Assembly: GCA_963706325.1 (NCBI GenBank)
Contig: CAVPLT010000004.1
Span: 416,001-480,000 of the forward strand
Origin: an uncultured Nitrospiraceae bacterium
GTDB lineage: Bacteria > Nitrospirota > Nitrospiria > Nitrospirales > Nitrospiraceae
DNA length: 64,000 nucleotides
Direction of reading: 5' to 3'
Part shown: positions 13,773 to 30,076 of the stretch, piece after piece
Layout: each line of letters begins with the position of its first letter
How positions within the stretch are numbered: position 1 is the stretch's first letter
Notes under the pieces: model-generated
What the model saw: the letters and a program-made list of their open reading frames with translations, nothing else
Told to the model about the DNA's origin: nothing
Databases searched by the model: none
Made by a program: the position numbers and the translations under genes

Positions 13773-14093
13773 GTGCACATGAATAGCCTTGTGGTAGGAG
13801 GTATAGCCAGACCGTTGGATCATGAATCGATCGATGAATGGATCGTCGAAACACTATGCCGGCGTGGGCCTCTGACGCTTGACTATCTTAATAGTCTGTT
13901 CCCGAAATTGGAGGAGGCGCGATTGTTGTTCGCCGTCGACCGTTTGAGTCGAGTCGGAAAAATCGTCATCGCTCCGCCCCACGGCGGGGACTACCTTATT
14001 TCCGCGAGACTGACTGAAGAGGTCGTGGCGGACCAAGGGGACAGCGGATCGTTCGTTAACTCACAAGAGCTGACGGTGGTTTGTACCCAATAA
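13773..14093 (+). CDS. hypothetical protein (possible winged-helix-like)
   Basis: ~105 aa ORF with GAGG RBS; start may be 13779. Confidence 0.5.
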   Translation: MHMNSLVVGGIARPLDHESIDEWIVETLCRRGPLTLDYLNSLFPKLEEARLLFAVDRLSRVGKIVIAPPHGGDYLISARLTEEVVADQGDSGSFVNSQELTVVCTQ

Positions 14094-14143
14094 GTCGAAG
14101 CAGTGGATGAATAGGCAGCGAAGCGTCCGAGTCGTCGCGGGAA

Positions 14144-14620
14144 GTGGTGCGTACCATGAAGTTCAACATTTATTTCGAGAGCCGAGGGCAAAGATCGCGT
14201 GATCTAACCTTGACTGTCGTCGAGGCTCCTGCGAGATCTGGGGTGCTGGAGTTCACTCTTTCCGGAGAGCTGCGGTATGTCGATCGCCAGGCCGTCCAGT
14301 GGCTGCAACTGGATGGTAGGTCCGGATGGGGTGTTGAGCGTGATGGTTGTGTGCAGCAAGCGTTGCCCGTCGAGGTTACCGATCTGTTCGAAGATCTCCT
14401 TCACATTGTCAGGGTGAGAACTGAAGGGTCAGATTGGCGGCGGATCGAGATTACCAGCCTGATTCGCGGGCCCTCGCATCGTCTTATATTGAGAGGATTC
14501 GGTATTCCAGACAGGCGAGGGATCACCGAGGCGCGAATTGTGATGACAGTTGAGGAGGCTCGCTTTGATCAGGCGCCTCAGCCGGTGTCGTGGGCAGCAG
14601 CGGGCGAGGATATTGTCTGA
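14144..14620 (+). CDS. hypothetical protein
   Basis: 158 aa ORF co-directional with neighbours. Confidence 0.5.
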   Translation: MVRTMKFNIYFESRGQRSRDLTLTVVEAPARSGVLEFTLSGELRYVDRQAVQWLQLDGRSGWGVERDGCVQQALPVEVTDLFEDLLHIVRVRTEGSDWRRIEITSLIRGPSHRLILRGFGIPDRRGITEARIVMTVEEARFDQAPQPVSWAAAGEDIV

Positions 14621-14652
14621 GGGCTTCGTCAGGTCCTGCAATGGAGGTGAGC

Positions 14653-15120
14653 ATGAAACGTATCGGAGACCCCGCACTGACTTTTCGGTTTCCGGTCATC
14701 ATTGATGGCGGCTTGGCGTCGATCGATCCTGCCCAATTGCTAGGCCAATGGGTGGCATTGTGCTTTCTGCCTCATCTGGGGGGAGTGGAGATCGATTTGC
14801 TGGATCGCCAAGGACAGGCGATGGAAGATCTGGGCGCGTTGTTGCTCGTGGTCTCACTGGAGACGCAAGCGCTGCAGCGAGAGGAGTGCCTTCGTATCGG
14901 TGCTGTGCATTTTACTCTGCTCGGTGATCCACTCAAGCGACTTCGGCGACTGTATGGTGGCGTGACCACTCAGTTATGGGGACGAGCGCAGACATTTTTG
15001 ATTGATCCGGAGGGACGATTACGGTTTCCGCTGGTGCACAGTCTCAGCGAGCAGGGGATGGGAGTGCTGACGGAATCGCTGCAAGCCCACCAAGATCAGG
15101 AGATCGCAGCACTGCTGTGA
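14653..15120 (+). CDS. AhpC/TSA (redoxin)-fold protein lacking the canonical peroxidatic Cys motif
   Basis: GQWVALCF, FTLLGDP, TFLIDPEGRLR; GGAGG RBS. Confidence 0.65.
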   Translation: MKRIGDPALTFRFPVIIDGGLASIDPAQLLGQWVALCFLPHLGGVEIDLLDRQGQAMEDLGALLLVVSLETQALQREECLRIGAVHFTLLGDPLKRLRRLYGGVTTQLWGRAQTFLIDPEGRLRFPLVHSLSEQGMGVLTESLQAHQDQEIAALL

Positions 15121-15534
15121 GGGCGGCCGCACCCTCCGACGTCGACGGAGTGCGGTAAAAGAGGATGCGAGATAATGGTCACGCTGCTGGCGGACCCTGT
15201 CATGAGCCTCGTGCAAGGCAAGCGGTGCCGGCGCGCTGCTATTCTAGAGGGGCATAGAGCCGGCTAAAGGTCAGTGCCTGGGCGTTGTCGATTCGCAACT
15301 GGTGCGTGCTTGTGTGGCTCGTGCTGAAACGAAAGATGTTACACGATCTTACTTAATGAGTCTTCAAAGATCGGCTCGCCTATTCAAAGCTACTGGCCGT
15401 AATTATAACCGTCTGTCTGCTCTGATTTATGCTCGATCTGTCGGCCCACCTCGCCTATAAACTTCGGAACTGTAGGCCAATAGATCGGTAGGCATAGTCG
15501 ACGCAGTGAACAGCACGTCGCACATGTCATCCGC

Positions 15535-15759
15535 TTAGGCCAGGAAATCCCGACCCGCTCGGTTTGCTGTATCCTTCCATAGCCTCTCAACAAATCGCCG
15601 GGCCAACCTGGTGCCCTGCGCCCGTTGAAATGCTCGCCGACGGTGGATCGGATTCATCTTCAGGTACCATCGTACAGTTTCTTCCGGTCTCCTCATGCGA
15701 GGGGTCGGGTACAACCTGCGATCAGGACCCTCGTCTGGAAACAGATTATTCTGGCTCAT
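15535..15759 (-). CDS. small basic hypothetical protein
   Basis: 74 aa with GAAGGGA RBS; no recognisable motif. Confidence 0.3.
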   Translation of the reverse strand: MSQNNLFPDEGPDRRLYPTPRMRRPEETVRWYLKMNPIHRRRAFQRAQGTRLARRFVERLWKDTANRAGRDFLA

Positions 15760-16338
15760 TGTTCCCTTCCGGTGAGACAACCGATTGTCGGTGCCGCCCT
15801 CCGGCACCATCGGCACATCACCCTTCTAAAAAGACGTTTCTGACTGAGACCCCGCATCGGGAAGGACCGCATAGGTTCATTGTTCCTTCGTAACGAGGAC
15901 CATGTCGTCGCACTGTATCCGCCTCATGCATCCTGAGGGGGAATGAGCGGGCGGGGGGCTTCAAGAGGAAAGAAGGCGCCGCCCAGGGAGTGGGGAGGGC
16001 AGGCCCACTCCTGTGCCGATGAATGGACATCGGCTGCGCGTAGAAGTCGCAGTATGCAACTGCAGTCGCCGTGCCAAGGACATCTTTGTGATTTCAGCGA
16101 AACCTGGCGTGCTAATTCGTGCCCAGCAGCAATTGTTGCTGGGCGACTGTTGGGGAATCTGCAGAATGAAGGGGAAGACTTCGTGCAGGAGACTGATCGT
16201 TATGCGGAGGTGTTGCGATTCTGCCGTGGTTGATGCTTTGAGATTCTTGCGCGCGTTAATGGAGCGAAGCACGGAGCGGCGCACGCCCTGTCGGAGTCCA
16301 TCGCGCGCGAGCGTTATCGTTGGGTAAGGTAAGTCCGG

Positions 16339-17094
16339 TTATGATTCTTGTTGTATTTTGATCATGCGGCCGGCCAATAGGTTGGCCGGAATCGCGATAT
16401 CCATTTTTGCAGGCCGTGGCTGCTTTCTGCAGGCCATCATCTTGACGAAGGTATCCTTGTCGACGGAAAGGTTCAGCCGCTCGTTGAATTGCTTTTCCTC
16501 GCGGATGGTGGAAGACACCCGGCCGTTGTAATCGTGGCCGGGGTACAGGATCGTGTCGTCGGGGAATGTGAATAGTTTCCCGCGCACGGATTCGAACAGC
16601 TTCTCCGCTGAGCCGCCCTGCAGATCCGTCCGGCCGTTTCCTCGGATGAAGAGGGCATCGCCTGTGAACAGAGCGCCGGGTAACACATAGCTAGTGCAGC
16701 TGTCCGTGTGACCAGGGGTGGCCAGCGCTTTCATTACGCTGTTGCCGAAGCCCAGCTCTTGCCCATCGTGCAGAAACATGTCCGCACCGGTGACCACGCC
16801 TTCCGCGCCGCCTCCATAGACGATGCGCGCATCGAGGCGATCCTTGATCAGTGAGGCGCCGGTGATATGGTCGGCGTGAACATGCGTTTCTAGGACAAAA
16901 AGAAGCGTCAAGCACAGTTCGCGGGCGATGGTAAGATCGCGGTCGACATTTTCAATGACGGGATCGACAATGACGGCCTGTCCTGACTCTCGGTCGTAGA
17001 TGATATAGGTACGACTTTCAGCCCTGTCGTCGATGTCTTGCTTCTGGTTCACATCCGCCAGAACGGTGACGACATAGGTCTCACTGAGGGCCAT
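16339..17094 (-). CDS. ETHE1-like persulfide (sulfur) dioxygenase, MBL fold
   Basis: LETHVHADHITG, TPGHT, FTGD...GRTD, YPGHDY, EEKQFNERL. Confidence 0.88.
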   Translation of the reverse strand: MALSETYVVTVLADVNQKQDIDDRAESRTYIIYDRESGQAVIVDPVIENVDRDLTIARELCLTLLFVLETHVHADHITGASLIKDRLDARIVYGGGAEGVVTGADMFLHDGQELGFGNSVMKALATPGHTDSCTSYVLPGALFTGDALFIRGNGRTDLQGGSAEKLFESVRGKLFTFPDDTILYPGHDYNGRVSSTIREEKQFNERLNLSVDKDTFVKMMACRKQPRPAKMDIAIPANLLAGRMIKIQQES

Positions 17095-17350: not shown

Positions 17351-17740
17351 CTAGGACTGCGCCTCGCCTTGCCACAGCAGGTCATACCCCAGTTCCTTCG
17401 TGTCGGAGCAGAGCGCCGAGACCTTGGCGAACGTGTCTCGGAACAGTTGGTTGGCGTGGGATTGTTCGTGCTCCTCAAATGAGCGCCAATAGGTCACGAT
17501 CACATAGTGCTCGGCGGACTCTCTTGACGTATTGAGAGAGCCTTCGTCGGAGACGAAGCCGGAGAACTTGAACACTTGTCCGGCTATGAACCCGCCTTTG
17601 TCTCCGCCATAGGTCTCCTTGACGACACTGCACATTTGACCAACGGCCAGCTCCACATCATCAAAAGTCACGCCCGGTTTCAGAGTGACGCTGTTGAATA
17701 ACATTTTGGCGCCGAAGGGGATCGTAATCGGTCCGAACAT
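17351..17740 (-). CDS. 129-aa dimeric alpha/beta-barrel protein resembling one domain of sulfur oxygenase reductase
   Basis: GGAGG RBS; VGQMC37SV, YW-x5-H91-x3-H95, E116-x2-Y. Confidence 0.6.
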   Translation of the reverse strand: MFGPITIPFGAKMLFNSVTLKPGVTFDDVELAVGQMCSVVKETYGGDKGGFIAGQVFKFSGFVSDEGSLNTSRESAEHYVIVTYWRSFEEHEQSHANQLFRDTFAKVSALCSDTKELGYDLLWQGEAQS

Positions 17741-17818
17741 GGCAGCCTCCGAAGATCGAATGGATAGAACCATGCTGTGGGTAGCGAATGCAGTTTTTTT
17801 CTGAAAGCTGATTCTACC

Positions 17819-18796
17819 CTAAATCCTCGGTTGGTGGATCGCGTCGATCAAATGTTTGGGCTCAACGGTGGTATTACGCATTTGTGCTTGGAGCACATTG
17901 CTGCCTGGCGGCACGCTGTAGGTCAACCAGACATTCCCTCCAATGATCGATCCTTTACCGATGGTTATGCGGCCTAGGATTGTCGCGCCTGCATAGATCA
18001 CTACGTCGTCCTCGACGATCGGATGGCGGGCGTTGCCTTTGAGCAGCATGCCATTGTCACCTTCCTGAAATCGTTTTGCGCCGAGGGTGACGGCTTGATA
18101 GAGCCGCACGCGCTCGCCGATGATCGTGGTTTCGCCGATTACGACGCCGGTGCCGTGATCGATGAAAAAATAGCCTCCGATGGTCGCGGCCGGGTGAATG
18201 TCGATCCCCGTTGTGGAATGCGCGATATCGGAGATGAGACGCGCCGGCAGGCGCGCGCCCAACTCGTAGAGCGCGTGCGCGACGCGGTAGTAAATGACGG
18301 CGGTCATGCCGGGATAACAAAGCAGAATTTCGGAAGAACTGGTGGCCGCGGGATCTCCCTGGTAGGCCGCTTGCAAATCAGTGAAGAGCCGCGCACGAAT
18401 GGTCGGGAGCTGCGCCGCGAACTTGCTCGTGATGTCGATGGCCTTCTGTATCGAGGGGGCCTCGTCCTGCTCATCCTGTGCCGATATGAAGAGGAGTCCC
18501 CGGCGAACTTGATCCTGCAACATACCCAGTGTCAGGTGTAATTGGTCGCCGACAAAAAAGTCGATGTTCGACTCATTCACGTCCGATCGGCCGTAATGAC
18601 TGGGGAACAGGACGGCGCACACACCATCCAAGACTTCCATCAATGCTTTGCGGGACGGCAATTCACGCATACGGCCTTGATGGCGCACATTATGCTCGAC
18701 TTCACGCGAGTGCCGCAGCTCTTCCACGACCTGGTCGATATTCCAGGTCGATGGCGTTGCCGCCAGAGGTTGAATCGAGTTCCGGTCCATGAACAT
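17819..18796 (-). CDS. cysE: serine O-acetyltransferase (SrpH/EpsC type)
   Basis: GDPAA, GIDIHP, FIDHGTGVVIGET, RHPIVED hexapeptide repeats. Confidence 0.95.
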   Translation of the reverse strand: MFMDRNSIQPLAATPSTWNIDQVVEELRHSREVEHNVRHQGRMRELPSRKALMEVLDGVCAVLFPSHYGRSDVNESNIDFFVGDQLHLTLGMLQDQVRRGLLFISAQDEQDEAPSIQKAIDITSKFAAQLPTIRARLFTDLQAAYQGDPAATSSSEILLCYPGMTAVIYYRVAHALYELGARLPARLISDIAHSTTGIDIHPAATIGGYFFIDHGTGVVIGETTIIGERVRLYQAVTLGAKRFQEGDNGMLLKGNARHPIVEDDVVIYAGATILGRITIGKGSIIGGNVWLTYSVPPGSNVLQAQMRNTTVEPKHLIDAIHQPRI

Positions 18797-18824: not shown

Positions 18825-20603
18825 CTAATATCTCTTGAGTTGATGCAGGGCACCCACTAAGGCGTCAATTTCATCGTGTGTGTTGTAGAAAGCCAGCGAG
18901 GGGCGCACCGTGCCCTCCAATCCGTACCGCCGTACTGCCGGTTGGGCGCAGTGATGACCCGCACGGACTGCGATGCCATGTTGGTCCAGATGCCGGGCGA
19001 CTTGTTCAATAGAAAGGCCTTCCATTACGAAGGACAGAACGCTGGCCTTTGAGGCCGCGGTCCCGATAGGGCGTAGACCCCGAACCGACGAGAGGGCGTC
19101 AGTGGCGTACAGGAGCAACTCGTGTTCGTAGGCTGCGATGGCAGGCATCCCTACCTGGCTCAGGTAGTCGATGGCGACTCCAAGACCGATGACTTCGGCG
19201 ATAGCCGGCGTGCCCGCCTCGAATTTCTGAGGACTGCTTTGATAGGTCGTTTTTTGAAAAGACACATCCTTGATCATATTCCCACCGCCCTGCCAGGGAG
19301 GCATGGCTTCGAGCAGGTCGGCCTTCCCGTATAGCACGCCGATTCCGGTCGGTCCGAAGATCTTGTGGCCTGAAAACGTAAAAAAATCACAGTTCATTGC
19401 CCTGACGTCGATTGGCATGTGGGGCGTCGATTGCGCGCCGTCCACCAAGACGGGCACTCCCTGCGCATGGGCCATCGCAATCAGCTGTTCGACAGGGTTG
19501 ACGGTCCCCAAGGCATTGGACACTTGTGTGATGGCCACCAATTTGGTACGAGGGCCCAGGAGAGCTGCGAACTCATCGAGCAGCAATTCGCCTGCATCGT
19601 TGATCGGCGCGACCCGAAGCGTTGCGCCGGCCTGCTCTGCCAGCATTTGCCAGGGTACGATGTTCGCGTGATGTTCCATCGCAGTGAGGAGGATTTCATC
19701 ACCTCGGCCGACGTGAGCCCGCCCATAAGTCTGCGCCAACAAGTTAATGGCTTCGGTGGTCCCCCGAGCAAAGACGATCTCCTTCGAATCCGCAGCGCCG
19801 ATGAATCGCCGCACCTTGTCTCGTCCGCCTTCGTACAAATCGGTCGAATGTTGCGCCAAGGTGTGGGCGCCCCGGTGGATGTTGGAGTAGTCCCGGCTGT
19901 AAAATTTTGACGTGGCGTCGATTACGGCCTGCGGTTTCTGTGTCGTGGCTGCATTGTCCAGCCAGATAAGCGGTTTCCCGTTTACGTGGCGTTGCAACAG
20001 CGGAAAGTCCCGTCTGATGGCATCGATGTTCAGCGAAGATAGATTCAACCCATGCTTTGGAACGGGCGTAGCCTGCGGTGCTCTATGCGTGGCTCCATGA
20101 GATCCGCGCAGGAAATAGAAATCCGGGGTAAACAGGTCCTCATGGTGCTGCGAAGCAAATCCGAGGTCGGTGCTTTTTGCCCAATAGGGATCGGTGTGAC
20201 CGTTGCGTTCCCCATGTGGCTGGACGGGTGACGAGGCATGTCTATGGGTCTCGCCGCCGCCGTTGCATCGTGGCTCGCCGAAGGGATGGGTTTCGCTGGA
20301 GTTGTGGTCATGCCCACCCGATCCTGTGCCGGACCCCGCTGCCAGGGGGCCTTGTAGTCCAGGGTGCACAGGGGGGTGGGTGTCTGGTGTCGCGGATGGA
20401 TAGCCACCAGCTAGGCCCGGATACTGCGGTGTGCCCGTTGGAACCGCGGAGGCAAAGCTTTCTTCCCTTATCCCGTGCTGAAGAGCCGTCGGGTGAGACC
20501 CCTCGGCTGATTCCGCAAAGAATTCGTTTGCTAGCTTGGTGAGCAGCTCTGTGCCGAATGGATCAGGGCCGATACCCGTCATATTGTCCGGTGCTTGTGT
20601 CAT
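18825..20603 (-). CDS. cysteine desulfurase (SufS-like) with disordered N-terminal encapsulin cargo-loading region
   Basis: LDNAATTQKP, FSGHK (PLP Lys), RAGHHCAQP; ~190-aa Pro/Gly/His-rich N-extension with LTKLANEFF. Confidence 0.95.
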   Translation of the reverse strand: MTQAPDNMTGIGPDPFGTELLTKLANEFFAESAEGSHPTALQHGIREESFASAVPTGTPQYPGLAGGYPSATPDTHPPVHPGLQGPLAAGSGTGSGGHDHNSSETHPFGEPRCNGGGETHRHASSPVQPHGERNGHTDPYWAKSTDLGFASQHHEDLFTPDFYFLRGSHGATHRAPQATPVPKHGLNLSSLNIDAIRRDFPLLQRHVNGKPLIWLDNAATTQKPQAVIDATSKFYSRDYSNIHRGAHTLAQHSTDLYEGGRDKVRRFIGAADSKEIVFARGTTEAINLLAQTYGRAHVGRGDEILLTAMEHHANIVPWQMLAEQAGATLRVAPINDAGELLLDEFAALLGPRTKLVAITQVSNALGTVNPVEQLIAMAHAQGVPVLVDGAQSTPHMPIDVRAMNCDFFTFSGHKIFGPTGIGVLYGKADLLEAMPPWQGGGNMIKDVSFQKTTYQSSPQKFEAGTPAIAEVIGLGVAIDYLSQVGMPAIAAYEHELLLYATDALSSVRGLRPIGTAASKASVLSFVMEGLSIEQVARHLDQHGIAVRAGHHCAQPAVRRYGLEGTVRPSLAFYNTHDEIDALVGALHQLKRY

Positions 20604-20607
20604 CGCA

Positions 20608-21579
20608 TCACCTCTTCGGATAGACATAGTCGTGGTAGAAGTTCACGGATACGTTATCCAGACGCGCGATGGCATCTTCTGTTAGCACCGCGGTTGAGAA
20701 ATAGCGAGTCACGAGATGTGAGGCAATGCCGTGCTCATTCGTTCCCATGTAACGGATGGAAAGACCCGGCTCGACTTCTCCCGTTACCCCGCCCTTTTGC
20801 AAGCCGACGACACCTTGCTGTGGTTCACCGACGCGCAGGAGGAGGATGCTGGTCTTGCCTCCCTTGTCGATTTCCAATTTGTTGCTTGGAAGTAAGGGAA
20901 TTCCACGCCATGTTATGAATGGGGAACCGTAAAAATTCACGGTGGGTGGCGGCACCCCTCGCCTGGTCGCTTCACGACCGAAGGCGGCGATGGCTTTGGG
21001 GTGGGCAAGGAAGAACGCGGGTTTTTTCCATACCAGGCTTAGAAGCTCGTCGAAGTCATCTGGCGTGGGTGTGCCTTTCCGGCTGTTGATCCGTTGTCCC
21101 GGTACGACTTCCTTCAAGAGCCCGAAGTTCGGATGGTTAATCAACTCCCACTCCTCTTGCTCCTTAACCGCTTCTACCGTTAGCCGCACTTGCTCCCGCA
21201 ACTGATCGATGCGATTGCTGTACAGATCCGTCACGCGGGTATGGGTGTGGACAACTGTCTGGATACTACTGAGATGATATTCACGTGGATTCACTTCATA
21301 ATCGACAAAGGCCGTGGGGAGCTTTGGTTCGCCGCCATCGACGGTCAGCAGGTCGACATGCTCTTCTCCAAAATCGTTCTCCGGCGTGCCTTTAGCTGCC
21401 TTCGCCACCCTGTTCACGCGATAGACTCCGCCATCGATATTCACCCAGGGGAGAAGTTTGCGCAGCCACCGCGGGGTGATCTGCACCATCTGTGGAACTG
21501 TGACCGTCGCGGTTGCCAGATTGCGCGCTGCTTTGGCGCTCAAACTCTGTTGTCCTGATGCACTGGATCGTTCGCTCAT
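20608..21579 (-). CDS. family 2A encapsulin shell protein (SrpI/MMP-I type)
   Basis: AARNLAT...PQM..ITPRWL..LPW, YRVNR, DYE.NPREY, TRVTDLY, FGLL; ~323 aa without a cNMP-binding insertion. Confidence 0.93.
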   Translation of the reverse strand: MSERSSASGQQSLSAKAARNLATATVTVPQMVQITPRWLRKLLPWVNIDGGVYRVNRVAKAAKGTPENDFGEEHVDLLTVDGGEPKLPTAFVDYEVNPREYHLSSIQTVVHTHTRVTDLYSNRIDQLREQVRLTVEAVKEQEEWELINHPNFGLLKEVVPGQRINSRKGTPTPDDFDELLSLVWKKPAFFLAHPKAIAAFGREATRRGVPPPTVNFYGSPFITWRGIPLLPSNKLEIDKGGKTSILLLRVGEPQQGVVGLQKGGVTGEVEPGLSIRYMGTNEHGIASHLVTRYFSTAVLTEDAIARLDNVSVNFYHDYVYPKR

Positions 21580-21706
21580 CGTGTCGTCCTTTCCATGGTG
21601 TTGGGCAGGTGCCCTGAAATCGTTCACTCACTACGCTTCTTGGCCCACGTCCTCACGTGATGCCCTCCAAGAATCCGGCATGGTCTGGGGCGGCTCGGTC
21701 GCCCGA

Positions 21707-22222
21707 TTATGGCTTCATCCCGTGCCCAGGAATAATCGTGAAGACACGCCGGTCGAAGCGCAGGATTCCGCTGTGTATGAGATGTTTTCTGGCAAAATAG
21801 CAGGCGTCGTTGATGAGAAATTTCGCCGGAAAATTATCCACTCCATCGATCACCACCGAATAATTACGAACAAGATCCAAAGCGTTGGCGGCCATAAACC
21901 GATCCTCAAACAGCACCACTTTGACGTCCGGATTCAGTGCCTCGATCTTTTCCTTGGCCGAGAGGACCTTGGGGCGTCCCACATCGGGCGTGTGATGAAT
22001 GACCTGTCGCTGAAGATTGGAGAGATCAACGACGTCGTTGTCGATCAGTCCGATGGTGCCCACGCCGGCTGCAGCCAGGTACAGAGCTGCCGGTGAACCG
22101 AGGCCACCGGCGCCGACGATCAGAATGCTTGCCTGCGAGATTTTGTTTTGCCCCTTGCCTCCCACCTCCGGAAGCAAGATGTGGCGGCTATATCGGGTGA
22201 TTTGTTCGTCGAAAAAATTCAT
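21707..22222 (-). pseudogene. moeB: C-terminally truncated MoeB/ThiF sulfur-carrier adenylyltransferase
   Basis: RYSRHILL, GAGGLGSP, SNLQRQ present; stops at 171 aa before the CxxC Zn motifs and active Cys. Confidence 0.75.
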
Positions 22223-22283
22223 ATGTCGCTTTCATCTGCATGCCAGTCATCAGCCTGGAGCTGACGGCTGAGAGCGTTCCTAC

Positions 22284-23213
22284 TTAGATATTGAAATATT
22301 TCTCCATGCTGATGTATCGCTCGCCCGTATCGCAGATCACCGTCACCACGCTTTTACCTGGACCGAGTTCCTGTGCCAGCTTCTGGGCGGCATAGACGTT
22401 TGCGCCGGACGAGATGCCTCCCAGGAGGCCCTCTTTCTTTGCCAGGAGCTTGGCGGTCTGGTGGGCCTCATTGTCGGTGACCGTGATCACCCGATCGAGG
22501 ATCTTCTGATTCAACACCTGCGGGATAAACCCCGCGCCGATGCCCTGAATTTTGTGGGGGCCTGGCGCGCCGCCTGAGAGAAGCGGAGATCCGCTCGGCT
22601 CCACCGCAACGATGTGAATGTGTGGATTGCGTTCCTTGAACACTTCCCCGCAGCCGGTGATGGTCCCGCCTGTGCCCACCCCCGCGACGAAGGCGTCGAA
22701 CCGGCCGTCCAGGGCCTCCCAAATCTCCACGGCCGTCGTCTGCCTATGCGCAGCCGGATTAGCTGGATTGGAAAACTGGTCGGGCATGAAGCAAGAGGGA
22801 TGCTGCGACACAATCTGCTCCGCTTCCTTGATAGACCCTTTCATGCCATCGGCGGCGGAGGTCAGCACCAATTGCGCGCCATACGATGAGAGGAGGCTCG
22901 CGCGCTCCGCGCTCATGCTCTCCGGCATCACCAGGATCACCGGATACCCACGGACTGCCGCGATGAGCGAGAGGCCGATCCCGGTATTTCCGCTGGTCGA
23001 CTCGACGATCGTCGTGCCGGGTTTGAGCCGACCGCTTCGTTCCGCTTCACTGATCATGCTGAGGCAGATTCGGTCCTTGACGCTTCCCCCAGGGTTGGAG
23101 AATTCGACCTTGGCATAGATAGTCGCCCCGCCCGCTGGCGAGAGCCGGTTCAGTCGAATCAGCGGCGTGCGACCGACCAGGTGTGTAATGTTCGGTTGTG
23201 CTCGCTGCGTCAC
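22284..23213 (-). CDS. cysK: cysteine synthase
   Basis: PGGSVKDR, STSGNTG, GVGTGGT, HKIQGIGAGF, DTGERY. Confidence 0.95.
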   Translation of the reverse strand: MTQRAQPNITHLVGRTPLIRLNRLSPAGGATIYAKVEFSNPGGSVKDRICLSMISEAERSGRLKPGTTIVESTSGNTGIGLSLIAAVRGYPVILVMPESMSAERASLLSSYGAQLVLTSAADGMKGSIKEAEQIVSQHPSCFMPDQFSNPANPAAHRQTTAVEIWEALDGRFDAFVAGVGTGGTITGCGEVFKERNPHIHIVAVEPSGSPLLSGGAPGPHKIQGIGAGFIPQVLNQKILDRVITVTDNEAHQTAKLLAKKEGLLGGISSGANVYAAQKLAQELGPGKSVVTVICDTGERYISMEKYFNI

Positions 23214-23410
23214 CGGCCACCGCCCATGTAAAAGAGAAATTCCAGACGGTCGCCAGGCCGCAGCGGTGTAGAGCGCAACTGATCACGTTCGATCAGCGTC
23301 TCGTTCAATTCTACGGCGACCATCTGCGGGTCGATTTGTTTCGCCTTCAACGCGTCCAGTACGACTGACCCCTGGATCTCTTCTGATTTTCCATTGATCT
23401 CAACGAACAT
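23210..23410 (-). CDS. thiS: ThiS/MoaD-type sulfur carrier protein
   Basis: 66 aa, VAVELN, C-terminus FYMGGGR. Confidence 0.85.
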   Translation of the reverse strand: MFVEINGKSEEIQGSVVLDALKAKQIDPQMVAVELNETLIERDQLRSTPLRPGDRLEFLFYMGGGR

Positions 23411-23447
23411 AACCTCGGTTCTCCAATCGGTAGGGAGTGCCGTCCAT

Positions 23448-23867
23448 TCAAATGAACAACGAGGTCTCGGCGCCGGCTGTCAGTGCCAGAATCGCCGGCA
23501 ATCCCATGACGCTGTCAACCTGCTTCGTGACGGCGTCCGCGCTCACACCCATGTATTCAAGGCCCGCGCTGCAGGCCACCAGTCGGAAGTCACCGACCGC
23601 TCGGGCTTCCTGGAACATCTCAGACACGCGCGGGACTTTCTTTTCCTTCAGCAGCCGACGGACTTGCTCCGCAGATGCCTCATGCTCGGATGAAAAGTCG
23701 ACCTCATCGATTCGTCCTTCCGCCAGTTTACGAATCGTCCAGAAGAGCAGCACCACCGTGACGTCTTTTCCCATCGCGGCCGCAGTCAGTCCCAACGTGC
23801 CGACCTGGTGGAGGGTGTCGTAGGTGGCGTTGTGCGCAAAGATCACGAAACGTGGTTTCTGTGTCAT
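23448..23867 (-). CDS. DsrE/DsrF/DrsH-like sulfur relay protein
   Basis: [27 protein letters not shown] overlap with the upstream gene. Confidence 0.8.
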
Positions 23868-24946
23868 GACGCAACCTTCTGCGAGCCGAGCCGTCCGTAC
23901 CGGATCAGCCGATCGCGGACGATATTGCGGCTGATGCCGAGGAGTCGGGCGGTCCGGAGTTGATTCCGATCGCAATACTCGTACGCGGCATGAAAAATCG
24001 TGTCATCAATCAGTTGATACAGCTGAGGCCGTTCTTCCTGGAACAACTGCTGCAAGGTATCGGTGAGGGCAACCAGTGACCGGCCGGCCGTCTCTGCCCC
24101 GACTGCGACGTGAGGGCGTGAGCTTGGCAAACGCAGATCCGCCGGGCTGATTTCTGTGCCCGGGCAGACTACCAACGCGTGATGAATCGTATTTTCAAGC
24201 TCGCGGATATTGCCCGGCCAAGGGTAGGTAAGCAGTCGGTCTGTGGCTTCCGCCGAGAGTCGGGCATCTGTAAAACCCAGTCGGGGCCCGTATATCGAGA
24301 GGAAATAGTGAGCCAACGGCAGAATGTCGCCGGGACGCTCTCGCAACGGCGGGAGGTTCACGGTGGCGACATGCAGTCGATAGTATAGATCCTCGCGGAA
24401 CCGTCCTGCCGCCACGGCTTCGTCGAGGTTCACGTTCGTCGCCGCGATCAATCGCACATCGATGGCAATCGGTTGGCGTGATCCGATGCGTACCACCTCC
24501 CGCTCCTGGATCACCCGCAGCAGTTTGGCTTGAAGCGTCAGCGGGAGATCGCCGATTTCATCCAGAAACAACGACCCGCCCTCGGCGGTTTCGAACCAGC
24601 CGGCCTTGGTGGTGATGGCGCCGGTAAAAGCGCCGCGTTCATGACCGAAGAGTTCGCTTTCCATCAGGGACTCAGTGATCGCCGCGCAGTTGACCGCCAC
24701 GAACGGACCGGTGCGTCGAGCACTGAGTTCGTGAATGTGGCGCGCGATCAGCTCCTTGCCGGTGCCGGTTTCGCCGATAATGAGCGCCGTGGCCTGGCTG
24801 GGGGCAATCCGCTGAACCAGCTCCAGGAGGGCCTTTGATTTGTCGTCTTCGAAAACCAGGCAACTCGCCCTGATCGAAAGGGCGAGCGTTGTCGGGTCGG
24901 AAGCGGCTAATACCTTTAGCGCGCGTTGGCTGTTCGTCGTGGTCAC
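23864..24946 (-). CDS. SfnR-like sigma54 enhancer-binding protein without a receiver domain
   Basis: [12 protein letters not shown]-terminus, [22 protein letters not shown]-terminal HTH; GTG start with AAAGGA RBS. Confidence 0.85.
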
Positions 24947-24962
24947 GTTGTCCTTTCTGGCC

Positions 24963-26030
24963 CTATTCGACCGGCTCGGGAAACACGCGAAGCGACTTCG
25001 GCCGGATGAACACACGTTCGCCGGTGCTGAGGGCAAGATCCCGCCATTGTTCCTGGCTGACCTCCCCTTCGATTACCTCGCCGTTGTCGGTCCGTATCAT
25101 TTCCAATCGGGCGACGGCTCCCACTGGTTGTATTCGACCGACGGTGGCCTCGATGGCCCCGGTTCCATCGGAGAGGCGGTGGAGATCGATTTCATGCGGC
25201 CGCACATAACCGATCGCCGGCCCATCAGAAATGCCGCCTTGCTCGCGAAGCGCCAGGTCGAGATCCCCGACCTGCACCCGGCCTTCATGGACCCGGCCGT
25301 GAAACAGATTCACGCCGCCCAGAAAGTCATAGACGAACGGGCTGGCTGGATGTTCATAGACCTCCTCGGGAGTTCCGATCTGTTCGATACGTCCCTTATT
25401 CATGACGACCACCCGATCCGCCACCTCCAGGGCCTCGTCTTGATCATGGGTCACGAAGACGCTGGTCACGTGGAGGTTCGTGTGAAGTCGCCGGAGCCAG
25501 CGCCGGAGTTCCTTGCGGACCTTGGCATCGAGCGCGCCGAAGGGCTCATCGAGCAAGAGGACCGTCGGCTCGACGGCCAATGCGCGCGCGAGGGCGACTC
25601 GTTGGCGTTGCCCTCCAGATAGTTGTCGTGGATAACGATCTCCCAACCACTCCAGCTGCACAAGTTTGAGTAATTCACGCACCTTGGCGTCGATGGTGTC
25701 CTTGGGTGGCCGCGTGGCTCTCGACCTCACCCTCAGACCGAACGCGACATTCTCAAAAACGGTCATATGACGAAACAGGGCGTAATGCTGAAAGACGAAC
25801 CCCACGCCACGTTCGCCAATATGGCGATCGGTGACTTCCTGATCGTTGAGCAGAATCGAACCGGTCGTCGGGCCCTCCAAGCCGGCCAAGATTCTCAGCA
25901 GGGTGGTCTTGCCGCATCCCGAAGGCCCAAGCAGGGCAATCAGCTCACCGGTGTTGACGCGCAGATTGATCTCCTGCAGCGCGGTAAAGGTTCGGAAGGT
26001 CTTCGTCACGTTGCGTACTTCGATGCTCAT
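24963..26030 (-). CDS. cysA: sulfate/thiosulfate ABC ATPase
   Basis: [43 protein letters not shown]. Confidence 0.95.
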
Positions 26031-26902
26031 GGACGGTGCTCCTTCTGTTCAGCCGACGAAGTCCATTCCACCAGGCTCTTGGCGGCCAAGGTGACCACAG
26101 ACAGCAACGCCAGCAGTGAGGCGACTGCAAAGGCGGCCACATCGTTGTATTCGTTGTAGAGAATCTCGACGTGGAGCGGCATCGTATTGGTTTCGCCGCG
26201 AATATGCCCGGATACGACGGACACCGCTCCGAATTCTCCCATCGCTCGTGCATTGCAAAGAATGACGCCGTAGAGCAGGCTCCATTTGATTGACGGGAGC
26301 GTCACGCGCCAGAAGGTTTGCCAGCCGGTTGCGCCTAGCACGAGCGCCGCTTCTTCCTCGTCCTTGCCTTGCGCTTGCATGAGCGGAATCAGTTCGCGTG
26401 CGATAAAGGGAAACGTGACAAAGATGGTAGCCAGCACGATGCCCGGCACCGCGAAGATGATCTTGATATCGTGCGCGGCGAGCCAGGGCCCGAGGGCACC
26501 TTGCAAGCCAAAGAGCAGCACATAGATCAATCCCGCGACCACCGGTGACACGGAGAAGGGAAGATCGATCAAGGTGATAAGACCTGCTTGCCCCAAAATT
26601 CGAATTTGGCAATGGCCCATGCGGCCGAAATGCCGAAGACGACATTCAGCGGGAGGGCAATGGCCGCCGCCAAAAGCGTGAGCTGAATGGCGGCGATCGC
26701 ATCCGGGTCTTGAAACGAGGCCAGGTAGGTGCCAAGGCCATGCTTCAGCGCTTCGAACAGGATGGCCGCGAGCGGCACGAACAGAAATAGGCCCAGGAAT
26801 GCCAACGAAACCACGATTAGCCCCAGCGGACGAGGGCCGGCTCGGCCCGGTCGAGGCGATACGGGGAACTCTTTTCTCTAGGCTCAAGACACCGGTGGTC
26901 AT
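26027..26902 (-). CDS. cysW: sulfate ABC permease CysW (apparent frameshifts ~26845, ~26822, ~26582)
   Basis: [29 protein letters not shown]-terminal part split across frames. Confidence 0.85.
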
Positions 26903-26919
26903 ATTCCCTCCAAGTCCGT

Positions 26920-27756
26920 TCAGAATGCTTCCTGCCGTCTGCCACTCCACCACTGCAGTCCGTTGATGAGTAGGAGCAGAATGAACGAAGCCACCAGCAT
27001 CACGACCGCAATGGCCGTGGCGCCGGCATAATCGTATTGTTCCAGTTTCGTGATGATGAGCAGCGGCGTGATTTCCGTTCGCATCGGCATGTTGCCGGAG
27101 ATGAAGACGACGGAGCCGTATTCTCCGACCGCTCGGGCGAAGGCCAACGTAAAGCCGGTCAGCAGGGCCGGCAACACTTCCGGAAAGATCACCTCGGTGA
27201 AGGTTTTCCAGCGGTTGGCTCCCAGCTGGCGGCGGCCTCTTCGATCTCCTTCTCGAGATCTTGCAGCACCGGTTGGACAGTCCGCACCACGAAGGGTAAG
27301 CCGATAAAGGTCAGGGCTACCAGAACTCCCAACGGTGTAAAGGCGACTTTGATCCCCAGCGGTTCCAGATACTGCCCGATCCATCCGTTGACCGAATAGA
27401 TGGCGGTCAGCGCGATTCCGGCAACGGCCGTCGGAAGGGCAAAGGGCAGATCGACGAGCGCGTCCACGAGCTTCTTGCCGGGAAACGAGTATCGCACGAG
27501 GACCCAGGCCATGATCGACGCCGAAGACCGCATTGATGAGGGCGGCCAGAAAGGAGGCCCCAAACGTGAGCTGGTAGGAAGCGACCGTCCGAGGGTCTGC
27601 GACGGCCGACCAGAACTGGTCCCAGCTCAGGGTGGACGTCTTGACGAACAGACCGGTCAACGGGATCAGCACGATCAGGCTGAGGTAGAACAGCGTGAAT
27701 CCGAGCGTGAGGCCGAATCCGGGAAGCACGCTAGGTTGTTTCAAGACGGTTGACAT
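26920..27756 (-). CDS. cysT: sulfate ABC permease CysT (compensating frameshifts ~27519, ~27225)
   Basis: [10 protein letters not shown]-terminus; [13 protein letters not shown] in the alternate frame 27189-27563; [11 protein letters not shown]. Confidence 0.85.
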
Positions 27757-27781
27757 GATCTCTCCTTCTGATGCCTGTTGC

Positions 27782-27804
27782 GCCGGTCACTGGAGGTGAC
27801 CGGC
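27782..27804 (-). terminator. intergenic hairpin between sbp and cysT
   Basis: GCCGGTCAC-TGGAG-GTGACCGGC, perfect 9-bp stem. Confidence 0.5.
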
Positions 27805-27832
27805 ATTCATCACTACGACCTGCCGGCTGCGC

Positions 27833-28864
27833 TCATTTTCTGGTACGCGAAATCTCCTGATAGATCTGGTCGAACAATCCCCCGTCGGCAAAATGGACCT
27901 TGTTGGCTTTGTGCCAGTCGCCGACGATGTCCTTGAGGGTGAAGAGCGTCACCTTAGGAAACTGATCGGCATATTTGGCGGCCACTGCCGCCGATTGTGG
28001 ACGATAGTAATGTTTGGCCGCGATCTCTTGCCCTTCTTCGGAGTAGAGATATTCGAGATAGGCTTGAGCGACTTCTTTTGTGCCCTTCTTGTCCGCCACC
28101 TTGTCCACGACGCTCACGGTGGGCTCTGCGAGAATGCTGGTCGGCGGCACCACGATCTCGAATTTGTCTTTGCTCAATTCGGTTCCGCCCAAGAGGATCT
28201 CGTTTTCCCAATTGATGAGCACATCGCCGATGCCCCGCTCCACGAAGGTGGTCGTGGCGCCCCGCGCGCCGGAGTCGAGCACCGGCACGTTCCGATAGAG
28301 GCGGGAGAGAAAATCCCTGGCGGCGGTTTCATCGCCGCCGAATTTCTTGAGCGCATAGCCCCAGGCGCCTAGATAGTTCCAGCGTGCGCTGCCCGAAGTT
28401 TTCGGGTTGGGTGTGATGACGGAGACGCCGGGCTTGACCAGGTCGTCCCAGTCCTTGATGCCTTTGGGATTCCCTTTGCGGACCAGAAAAATGATGGTCG
28501 AGGTGTAGGGTGCGCTGTTATGGGGTAGCCGAGCTTGCCAATTTGCAGGGAGCAAAGCCGATTTTTCGGCGATGGCATCGACATCGTGCGCCAGCGCCAG
28601 CGTCACGACGTCAGCTTGCAGCCCGTCGATGACGGCCCGCGCCTGTTTGCTCGATCCACCGTGGGATTGCTTGATGGCAATCGTTTGACCGGTTTTCGTC
28701 TTCCATTCTTTGATGAAGGCGGTGTTGAACTCCTGATACAGCTCCCTTGTCGGGTCGTACGACACGTTCAGCAATGACACTGTCTCTGCCGCATCAACCG
28801 GTGCAAATGCGGCCAGAACTACCACTACCGACAATGAACTGATCACCTGTTTGAACGTCATCAT
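27833..28864 (-). CDS. sbp: sulfate-binding periplasmic protein
   Basis: [33 protein letters not shown]. Confidence 0.95.
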
Positions 28865-29041
28865 GATCTCCTTGGTTCCGACTGAGGTATGTTTGTTCGA
28901 TCAGGTCCACGACCTGTGTACAGTCTCCTGATCGAAGGTGTTCGAGAGAAAAAGGTCGCTTCGATGGTCAACAGTGATCTGGCGTGCACATGCCTGAGCA
29001 TGAGCGGGCATTGAATAGAATCGTTGCCCGATTGAGTCGGT

Positions 29042-30076
29042 TCATTTTGCTTGCCCCACTTCCTCTACGGCTTTCGTCCAGGCCCCTTGCGGACTGAACA
29101 GTGCCGCGAAGATCTGGTCCCACCCTCCAAGGTCTCCGATCGTGAACACATGGGGAGGGTGGGTGAAGGCGGCGGCCGAGGTCTTCACCACGTTCTCGTT
29201 TGTCGGGCGAAAACCGAACTCAACGAAGGCCTGTTGGGCTTCCTCGCCGTTCAGAAAGAGCACGAATGCATCGGCAAGGTCCCGGACATGATGACGGTCG
29301 GCGTTCCGATCGACGACCGCGATGGGGTTTTCGACCACAACGGTCTCAGCAGGAAAGATCAACTCATAAGGGCGCCCCTGTTTGATCCGCGGCAGTAATT
29401 CGTTTTCATAGGTGACAATGACGTCGCCCACGCCGCGCTCGAAGGTCGTGACGGATTCGCGACCGCTCTTATCCATGACTTTGACGTTCCGTTGCACCCG
29501 TTTGACGAGATCGACGGCGTGCTGATCGACCGCGGAGCCGGCAAGACCTTTTTGCTTTCCCTGGTTGAGGCCCGCGCCGTAGATCGCAATCACATCCCAC
29601 ATCGCTCCTCCGGAGGTTTTCGGACTGGGATAGAGGACTTCGACACCGGGCTTGGTGAGATCCTCCCAACCGTGAATGGCCTTGGGATTTCCTTTTCGAA
29701 CACCCAATGCGACGATTGAAGTCGTCACGATGCCTTTTTGAGCGCCTTGCTTCCAGTCGTAGGTCACGAGACCGGCCTTCACCAGTTGATGGAGATCGCT
29801 TTCCAACGACAGCGCCGCGATGTCCGCATCGAGGCCCCCCACAATCGCGCGCGCTTGCGCGCCCGATGCGGCAAAGGAGCTTCGAATCTGAATCGTTTCC
29901 CCTGTCTTCTGTTTCCACTGCTGGACGAAGGCAGGGATGATTCGTTTCTCGTAGGCTTCCTTCGGCACGCTGTAGGCGGCGAGCAGGAGTTCTCTAGTGT
30001 CAGCCCCGGCGATGGCCGGCAGGATCGTGAAAAAAGATATCAGCGCCGTGAGGCGGGTGATGGTTCTGGCGTTCAT
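29042..30076 (-). CDS. second, divergent sulfate/thiosulfate-binding protein (Sbp/CysP family)
   Basis: SFAASGAQARA, PSPKTSGGAMW, TYENE, GGWD. Confidence 0.88.
   Translation of the reverse strand: MNARTITRLTALISFFTILPAIAGADTRELLLAAYSVPKEAYEKRIIPAFVQQWKQKTGETIQIRSSFAASGAQARAIVGGLDADIAALSLESDLHQLVKAGLVTYDWKQGAQKGIVTTSIVALGVRKGNPKAIHGWEDLTKPGVEVLYPSPKTSGGAMWDVIAIYGAGLNQGKQKGLAGSAVDQHAVDLVKRVQRNVKVMDKSGRESVTTFERGVGDVIVTYENELLPRIKQGRPYELIFPAETVVVENPIAVVDRNADRHHVRDLADAFVLFLNGEEAQQAFVEFGFRPTNENVVKTSAAAFTHPPHVFTIGDLGGWDQIFAALFSPQGAWTKAVEEVGQAK

Follow-up and report, generated by a model that had tools for sequence, protein, structure and literature searches.

A probable single-domain homologue of the sulfur oxygenase reductase catalytic half in Nitrospiraceae

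Sulfur oxygenase reductase (SOR) is viewed as a specialised enzyme of a few thermophiles and sulfur oxidisers, and to our knowledge it is known only as an enzyme of about 310 amino acids with a duplicated domain, which builds a 24-mer sphere. The iron ligands of StSOR are given in PMC7398979 as His86, His90 and Glu114; in the mutants reported there, H86A, H90A, E114A and C31A abolished both activities, and C101A and C104A lowered them about tenfold. The same report describes one SOR monomer as forming an eight-stranded barrel and assigns the chimney of the 24-mer to a helix-loop segment at residues 125-152. The gene considered here lies at positions 17351-17740 on the minus strand of a 64,000-nucleotide stretch (the window) of contig CAVPLT010000004.1 (positions 416,001 to 480,000), from an uncultured Nitrospiraceae bacterium, and encodes a protein of 129 amino acids. 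We put at roughly 70% the probability that this protein is homologous, as a single domain, to the catalytic half of SOR, because profile methods connect the two and because a complete set of near-invariant residues aligns with those of SOR catalysis.

Translation of this span on the minus strand gave 129 residues followed by a stop (TAG at 17353-17351), the plus strand over the same positions holding three stops. A mechanically called open reading frame (ORF) extends to an ATG at 17773 and would yield 140 residues; we take the ATG at 17740 as the real start, because the homologues are about 130 residues long with the N-terminus MFGPITIP and because a Shine-Dalgarno-like GGAGG, read directly from the minus strand, is found at 17750-17746, 5 nt ahead of that ATG. 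The existence of 3495 related clusters (90% clustering, E <= 0.001, mostly Nitrospira), together with an AlphaFold model with a mean predicted local distance difference test (pLDDT) score of 87.7, argues that this is a real gene and no chance ORF. The sequence-only reading had described a 129-residue protein without giving its strand, and all of the motifs that it quoted were found: N16-SVT-L20-K21, T25-F26, VGQMC37SV, G50-F51, YW85RSFEEH91EQSH95 and E116-LG-Y119, with C37 and H91 54 residues apart and the W85-x5-H91-x3-H95 spacing as claimed. The SOR positions that it cited are borne out by the profile alignment with StSOR (6m35), counted from residue 6, and by PMC7398979: StSOR has C31, W80-x5-H86-x3-H90 and E114-PL-Y117, and a distance of 55 from C31 to H86.

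In order to place the protein, profiles were built for its own close relatives (subfamily A), for a sister subfamily (subfamily B, P0206 type; 719 clusters of proteins of about 150 residues that carry an additional C-terminal helix and share 31-41% identity with the window protein) and for both combined, and all three were searched against all sequences in the PDB (177,635 distinct). SOR 6m35 was the top match for each of the three, with E-values of 0.0032, 3.2e-5 and 3e-4, respectively. The best domain of the subfamily B profile (E 7e-4) aligned profile positions 14-136 with SOR residues 6-130, which is the whole catalytic half, and HMMER paired its Asn, Trp, two His, Glu and Tyr with N9, W80, H86, H90, E114 and Y117 of 6m35, the Cys falling one residue before C31. 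At E <= 10, the Pfam SOR model PF07682, with a gathering cut-off of 25 bits, picked up four of 24 family members, among which P0206 scored highest (E 9.5e-5, 21.8 bits, below the cut-off; model positions 34-117). A six-frame scan of 401 genomes with the same model returned 13 true SORs and seven matches below the cut-off, five of which lay within genes of this family.

Twelve of the 13 true bacterial SORs, translated unchanged, were aligned as a target for hhalign. The combined family matched this target with a probability of 72.7% (P 3.2e-5, 91 columns), subfamily A with 63.3% (P 6.9e-5) and subfamily B with 47.0% (P 2e-4, 115 columns), and every one of these matches was confined to the N-terminal half of SOR. 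The paired columns were N16-N, C37-C(31), G50/F51-G/F, T83-T, W85-W, H91-H(86), H95-H(90) and C111-C(101), to which the subfamily B alignment added E-E(114) and Y-Y/F. On the minus strand of the window, the Cys37 codon (17630-17632) is thus paired by hhalign with the essential, persulfide-carrying Cys31 (HMMER is off by one), the H91-E-Q-S-H95 segment (17456-17470) with the iron ligands His86 and His90, the Glu116 codon of the E-x2-Y motif (17393-17395) with the ligand Glu114, and the Cys111 codon (17408-17410) with the Cys101 equivalent by hhalign or a position beside Cys104 by HMMER. An ABM (antibiotic biosynthesis monooxygenase) control for hhalign was dropped, the 13 related genomes having offered six heterogeneous ABM genes, and the PDB-wide profile searches serve as the control.

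The four residues on which the sequence-only reading had staked its case, C37, H91, H95 and E116, proved near-invariant in both subfamilies when counted after hmmalign. In subfamily A (n = 121), a set of close relatives and hence a weak test, C37, H91, H95 and C111 were kept in all 121 proteins and E116 in 120 (one Asp); in subfamily B (n = 119), C37, H91 and H95 were kept in all 119, E116 in 118 (one Asp) and C111 in 108 (11 Ala). Across a combined alignment of 29 proteins, C37, F51, G54, T83, W85, E116, Y119 and W123 were invariant, and H91 and H95 were at least 90% conserved.

In its AlphaFold model the window protein has four strands in the order beta-alpha-beta-beta-alpha-alpha-beta, and the modelled fold is that of a generic ABM / dimeric alpha-beta barrel (DABB) protein, which is ferredoxin-like; a subfamily B model had a pLDDT of 85.4. 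When two copies were predicted together the score was 0.66 (runs of 0.66, 0.66 and 0.70) against 0.00 for the best control, a mark that 20 of 30 solved homo-pairs and one of 23 single chains attained. The runs agreed in at least 95% of contacts, with a partner pLDDT of at least 80, and placed beta4 (119-125) against beta2 (53-60) of the partner, with the N-terminal arm (1-9) in the interface. The homo-oligomer supposed by the sequence-only reading is therefore predicted as a homodimer; it is the usual ABM dimer, and its score may reflect recall of solved ABM dimers. The prediction lends support, short of demonstration, to the idea that a pair of copies recreates the eight-stranded barrel of one SOR monomer.

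We favour a reading, founded on the alignment with SOR, in which the window protein would be a cytoplasmic, ferredoxin-like (ABM / dimeric alpha-beta barrel) protein remotely homologous to the N-terminal catalytic half of SOR, and two copies would join through their beta-sheets into the eight-stranded barrel that the two halves of a single SOR chain build. In each copy H91, H95 and E116 would form a 2-His-1-carboxylate site, most likely holding a mononuclear non-heme iron, and the nearby invariant C37, helped by C111, would most likely carry sulfane sulfur as a persulfide or polysulfide; the odds that iron is bound by these three residues and that C37 is used for sulfane sulfur appear slightly better than even. 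The most likely reaction would be an O2-dependent oxidation of sulfane sulfur, either soluble or attached to cysteine, to sulfite (and possibly sulfide), perhaps accompanied by disproportionation, and we propose such an activity for the window protein tentatively, at somewhat less than even odds. Such an enzyme would carry out SOR chemistry as a small soluble protein outside any compartment, and its function would overlap with that of persulfide dioxygenase.

With SOR the window protein shares the ferredoxin-like half-barrel and the aligned conserved N, C31, G-F, T-x-W, H86-x3-H90, cysteine of the C101/C104 region, and E114-x2-Y. It differs in that its 129 residues make up one half, whereas SOR fuses two halves in one chain; in that a single cysteine, C111, stands where SOR has the Cys101/Cys104 pair; in that the C-terminal half and the chimney segment are missing and nothing points to a 24-mer sphere; and in that the half-size family occurs in mesophilic nitrite oxidisers and soil Burkholderiales besides sulfur oxidisers. 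By length, domain number and model cut-off the protein lies outside the SOR family as that family is defined, and it may well work like SOR.

Weighing against an SOR-like enzyme are results of two kinds, the first from distribution and gene context. The gene is accessory and patchily distributed: in a sample of the phylum the family was found in 27 of 301 genomes, every carrier belonging to one of two families in a single order, that of the source genome (16/50 and 10/24). Of 10 other genomes of the source genus, just 3 had it. When the neighbours of the gene in the window were compared by tblastn with the 80 best loci of subfamily A relatives (72-95% identity; the set to which all related-locus counts of this subfamily refer), the encapsulin operon was found in 1 of 80, the persulfide dioxygenase gene in none and the serine O-acetyltransferase gene (cysE) in 2; the encapsulin shell gene was also missing from four of the five other family-carrying genomes. 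No conserved operon partner of subfamily A emerged among the 80 loci, the largest neighbour clusters being a YchJ-like protein and an aldehyde dehydrogenase (15/80 each), followed by formyltransferase, HNH, ODP and NnrS. Among 20 loci of subfamily B, the commonest neighbours are a DegP-like protease, directly ahead of the gene in 8, and HSP20, close by in 6; this context is a hint of a stress regulon and not of an operon for sulfur oxidation. Neighbour ORFs were called crudely (longest non-overlapping), and several of the "0 families" ORFs in subfamily B loci are probably antisense artefacts.

Such a setting would suit a non-catalytic protein whose Cys, His and Glu residues bind iron or sulfane sulfur without turnover. 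It might carry persulfide, act as a sensor or belong, as a stress protein, to a regulon for protein quality control. The position behind DegP-like proteases and near HSP20 fits this explanation, as do the patchy, accessory distribution, the lack of a conserved sulfur-oxidation operon and a divergent DsrC/TusE-like gene found upstream in 5 of the 80 subfamily A loci. However, three metal ligands and a cysteine held under very strong purifying selection in two subfamilies of such low mutual identity look more like an enzyme, and the protein carries no DNA-binding or partner domain; we judge a purely binding role unlikely.

An enzyme of the SOR lineage could also use its iron and cysteine on another substrate, such as a low-molecular-weight thiol, a sulfinate or an organosulfur compound, in place of elemental sulfur or persulfide. 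The homology and the active-site conservation speak for this as they do for the reading we favour, and as the protein ends near residue 129, without the chimney segment of SOR, substrate access must differ from that in SOR. Nothing positive points to any particular substrate, however, and both the co-occurrence with true SOR and the sulfur-oxidiser names among the relatives fit inorganic sulfur better, making this explanation appear improbable. The co-occurrence comes from 400 genomes sampled from the class that contains a Burkholderiales metagenome-assembled genome, which we take to be Gammaproteobacteria in GTDB; 73 of them carry one or both subfamilies. Of the 13 genomes that have a true SOR, 8 also contain the family, compared with 65 of the 387 lacking SOR, a comparison confounded by the relatedness of the genomes and of sulfur oxidisers. 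The names come from subfamily B, whose sources include Thermocrinis, Thioalkalivibrio, Thiolapillus, Thiotrichales, Thioalkalispiraceae and Chromatiales, and whose members are annotated as "ligand-binding protein SH3" or hypothetical. Both subfamilies occur together in four of the sampled genomes (G062, G170, G287 and G362), and G062 and G170 have a true SOR as well; the half-size and full-length forms therefore coexist and do not replace one another.

The adverse results of the second kind come from sequence and structure. Plasmodium triosephosphate isomerase matched the same three profiles at E 0.006-0.03, so that E-values of about 0.01 are at noise level, and the SOR entries other than 6m35 fall there. 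The hhalign probabilities are only modest (47-73%). A hidden Markov model (HMM) of the SOR N-terminal half (150 columns) ranked the window ORF first of 35,540 six-frame ORFs in the source genome, with an E-value of 0.76 and the next ORFs at 1.2 and 1.4; with an HMM of the C-terminal half, the window ORF was not found among the six-frame ORFs. PF07682 gave no match at E <= 10 to the window protein and none in the source genome, which has no true SOR. A single-sequence PDB search with the window protein returned just a chance match (aristolochene synthase, E 1.4). At 50% clustering the family has 234 representatives, many of them fragments; the whole domain was covered by 13 of 150, and among these diverse proteins C37 and E116 were kept in 13, C111 in 11, H91 in 10 and H95 in 8. 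Several of the deviant representatives look frameshifted or degenerate.

The best Pfam match of the window protein itself was ABM (PF03992; 17.0 bits, E 0.007), under the cut-off of 23.1 bits, followed by an af470-like monooxygenase (E 0.021) and CT0912-like_C (E 0.061), and ABM matched 14 of 24 family members at E <= 10 (best member 19.7 bits). The first Foldseek match of the model was IsdI (E 2.9e-6), and the matches listed, to rank 50, were ABM/DABB proteins with no SOR among them. VIA-align placed SnoaB and RslO4 best over both models (Z 13.5-13.9, root-mean-square deviation (rmsd) 1.8-3.0, 97-106 residues aligned); with the window model, RslO4 scored Z 13.6 (rmsd 1.8, 98 aligned), and SOR 6qpa (HnSOR) came at rank 38 (Z 10.2, rmsd 3.4, 123 aligned), through its residues 148-311, which form the non-catalytic half. 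With the subfamily B model SOR stood at rank 25 (Z 10.9, rmsd 2.8, 120 aligned, residues 125-302). Structure was accordingly set aside as a discriminator for SOR, Foldseek and VIA-align having returned the generic ABM barrel with both models, and the ESM Atlas held just the family's own kind and ABM-like clusters. The match to SOR for which the sequence-only reading had proposed to search in profile or structure was thus obtained at the profile level, the structural result being the generic barrel.

These matches are what an ordinary ABM enzyme unrelated in function to SOR would give, be it a cofactor-independent mono-oxygenase or a heme degrader of the IsdG/HmoA type, and one source names two of the 120 listed homologues "heme-degrading monooxygenase HmoA"; the other named ones are called "hypothetical protein", the name that the sequence-only reading had foreseen for the gene. 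The ABM proteins compared (PF03992; SnoaB 3kg0, RslO4 7bio, ActVA-Orf6 1lq9 and IsdG 1xbw) have the same fold and size class, and the sheet-to-sheet dimer predicted here. N16, W85 and H95 presumably correspond to the Asn/Trp/His triad of the IsdG type, with a W-to-H spacing of 10; this triad does not discriminate, because SOR carries the same positions. An ABM enzyme of this sort would leave the invariance of C37, E116 and Y119 and the second histidine, H91, unexplained, and we know of no cofactor-free or heme ABM enzyme with the set of a Cys plus H-x3-H...E that sets this family apart. The beta2-beta3 loop of the window protein (residues 59-77) is also longer than that of ABM proteins. Moreover, IsdG was the only ABM structure in the PDB to score with the subfamily B profile, at E 0.47 against 3.2e-5 for SOR, and no heme- or iron-uptake genes were seen in the neighbourhoods examined. 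We consider an ordinary ABM enzyme a poor explanation of the family. What survives of the "SOR-like Fe/persulfide enzyme" put forward by the sequence-only reading is the kinship in sequence, the aligned and conserved residues and the predicted dimer; the structure searches, the Pfam model and synteny do not bear it out.

Another protein close to the family is CT0912 of Chlorobium tepidum (3gn6; PF22087, CT0912-like_C), a protein from a sulfur bacterium. Thirteen of 24 family members matched PF22087 at E <= 10 (best 5.1e-4), and VIA-align gave Z-scores of 9.7 (rmsd 2.2, 116 aligned) and 9.1 (rmsd 2.2, 118 aligned) with the window and subfamily B models, respectively. CT0912 differs in having two domains and about 300 residues, and the profile searches of the PDB did not return its own sequence at E <= 10.

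The genes flanking the ORF in the window are as the sequence-only reading had described them. Upstream, at a distance of 78 nt, is a serine O-acetyltransferase gene (cysE, 17819-18796, minus strand; TIGR01172, E 5.6e-49), the last recognised gene of an encapsulin operon that includes a family 2A encapsulin cargo cysteine desulfurase (18825-20627, minus strand; NF041166, E 2e-232, 773.7 bits, just under the 800-bit cut-off) with an N-terminal extension of about 200 residues, and a family 2A encapsulin shell (20608-21627, minus strand; NF041162, E 9.7e-139). Downstream by 247-256 nt is an ETHE1-type persulfide dioxygenase of the metallo-beta-lactamase fold (16339-17094, minus strand). Its best matches among solved structures were 4ysb (E 3.2e-61), BpPRF (E 1.5e-56) and human ETHE1 4chl (E 1.8e-55), glyoxalase II scoring only 1e-15 to 1e-21. 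Persulfide dioxygenases (4chl, 4ysb) resemble the window protein in the chemistry proposed for it, in which a mononuclear non-heme iron and O2 convert sulfane sulfur to sulfite; their fold is unrelated, which makes them functional analogues only. The placement between CysE and persulfide dioxygenase holds in the window and is peculiar to the source genome, the dioxygenase being a neighbour in none of the 80 loci.

CysE, the cargo desulfurase and the shell end a long same-strand sulfur-assimilation cluster (18825-30076, minus strand), whose other members are two binding proteins of the sulfate type, a pair of permeases, a CysA-like ATPase, DsrE-like, ThiS, CysK/PALP and ThiF proteins, and a sigma-54 activator without a receiver domain. 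The window protein, encoded at the edge of this sulfur-starvation-type cluster (sulfate ABC transporter, ThiS/ThiF/CysK, desulfurase encapsulin, CysE and persulfide dioxygenase), may return sulfite or sulfide to cysteine synthesis in the source Nitrospira, the family as a whole not being tied to the cluster. The encapsulin, its cargo and the ThiS/CysK/ThiF/DsrE set were found in one related locus, L017, in which a sigma-54 activator stands between CysE and the family gene; the closest relative (L001, 95% identical) has no encapsulin operon or dioxygenase within 2.7 kb upstream and 8 kb downstream. That the protein is an accessory or cargo of the encapsulin was rejected on the 1/80 linkage, the shell missing in four of five genomes and the lack of a disordered, cargo-type extension.

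Desulfurase encapsulins store elemental sulfur, and its remobilisation is left open in the account given by PMC10836720 (2024); the accessory genes that usually accompany them are described as rhodanese and serine acetyltransferase (PMC10836720; PMC8346489). The local pairing of the gene with a sulfur-storing encapsulin and a persulfide dioxygenase suggests an idea for how stored sulfur might be remobilised, and this pairing is rare. In its widest form the idea would be that the family makes up a class of its own, hitherto unrecognised, of small sulfur oxygenases (or oxygenase-reductases), representing the form of SOR before its duplication and widespread in mesophiles, from nitrite-oxidising Nitrospira and Burkholderiales of soil and groundwater to a large number of sulfur oxidisers. 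In the source Nitrospira it would have been recruited together with persulfide dioxygenase to turn encapsulin-stored sulfur into sulfite and sulfide for cysteine synthesis. We regard this wider proposal as speculative and very unlikely to hold in full; if it were true, it would supply an exit route for encapsulin sulfur, the question that the text of PMC10836720 leaves open.

Should the protein be active as proposed, SOR-type sulfur chemistry would not need a compartment, the origin of SOR by duplication and fusion of a dimeric barrel would be shown, and an overlooked sulfur-oxidising or sulfane-detoxifying enzyme would be added to nitrifiers and soil bacteria, in which sulfur metabolism is mostly disregarded. 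Full-text searches of the literature found no description of a half-size or single-domain SOR relative or of this family; where PMC7398979 speaks of "sor-like genes", full-length genes are meant. New here are the Nitrospira/Burkholderiales subfamily, the negative results from structure and synteny, and a rare arrangement in which the gene lies beside a sulfur-storing encapsulin and a persulfide dioxygenase.

The 120 listed homologues are 73-96% identical to the window protein and 127-168 residues long, those with a named source coming from Nitrospira or Nitrospiraceae. At least 583 species genomes carry a relative, since 583 of 599 pattern matches in contigs of one genome per species encode one; the source genome has a single copy. 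Longer or fused forms amounted to six proteins, all resembling gene-call fusions and none involving SOR or rhodanese, among 8000 word-sharing candidates scored. The 80 best loci are titled Nitrospira/Nitrospirales and Burkholderiales/Betaproteobacteria, and on the contigs with the latter titles (L014, L019, L055 and others) the subfamily A genes are 73-78% identical to the Nitrospira protein. So high an identity across phyla suggests horizontal transfer or mis-binned contigs.

The 12 bacterial SORs used as the hhalign target split into two groups that are 31-34% identical to each other and both of which have the Cys, the two His and the Glu; one group matches PF07682 at E-values of about 1e-135 to 1e-145 and the other at about 1e-60 to 1e-64, the second differing in its C-terminal third.

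As to expression signals, a search for sigma-54 promoters gave 63 matches against 65 expected by chance, none of them in the two intergenic regions flanking the gene, and no sigma-70-like or terminator-like site was found between CysE, the ORF and the dioxygenase. Rfam gave no match in 12000-36000. One RNA run, in which a small share of the words was present, yielded a single 212-nt contig on part of cysE (18235-18446) and nothing of the ORF. The interval downstream of the persulfide dioxygenase (15121-16338, about 1.2 kb) has no ORF longer than 109 residues on either strand and no Rfam match, and contains a sigma-54-like site with one mismatch at 16076-16062 (minus strand).

The gene order from DsrE to CysE is repeated in L017 at 59-80% identity. 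In the window, the ThiF-like ORF (21707-22222, minus strand; 171 residues) covers positions 1-158 of a 238-position Pfam model, and its start lies 595 nt from that of the encapsulin, compared with 837 nt in L017; the ORF therefore looks truncated by about 80 codons in the source genome. On the far side of the dioxygenase, 13773-15120 (plus strand) holds two ORFs without a Pfam family (106 and 158 residues) and then a peroxiredoxin of the AhpC/TSA type; the 106-residue ORF and the peroxiredoxin recur in L017 at 43% identity, downstream of the family gene.

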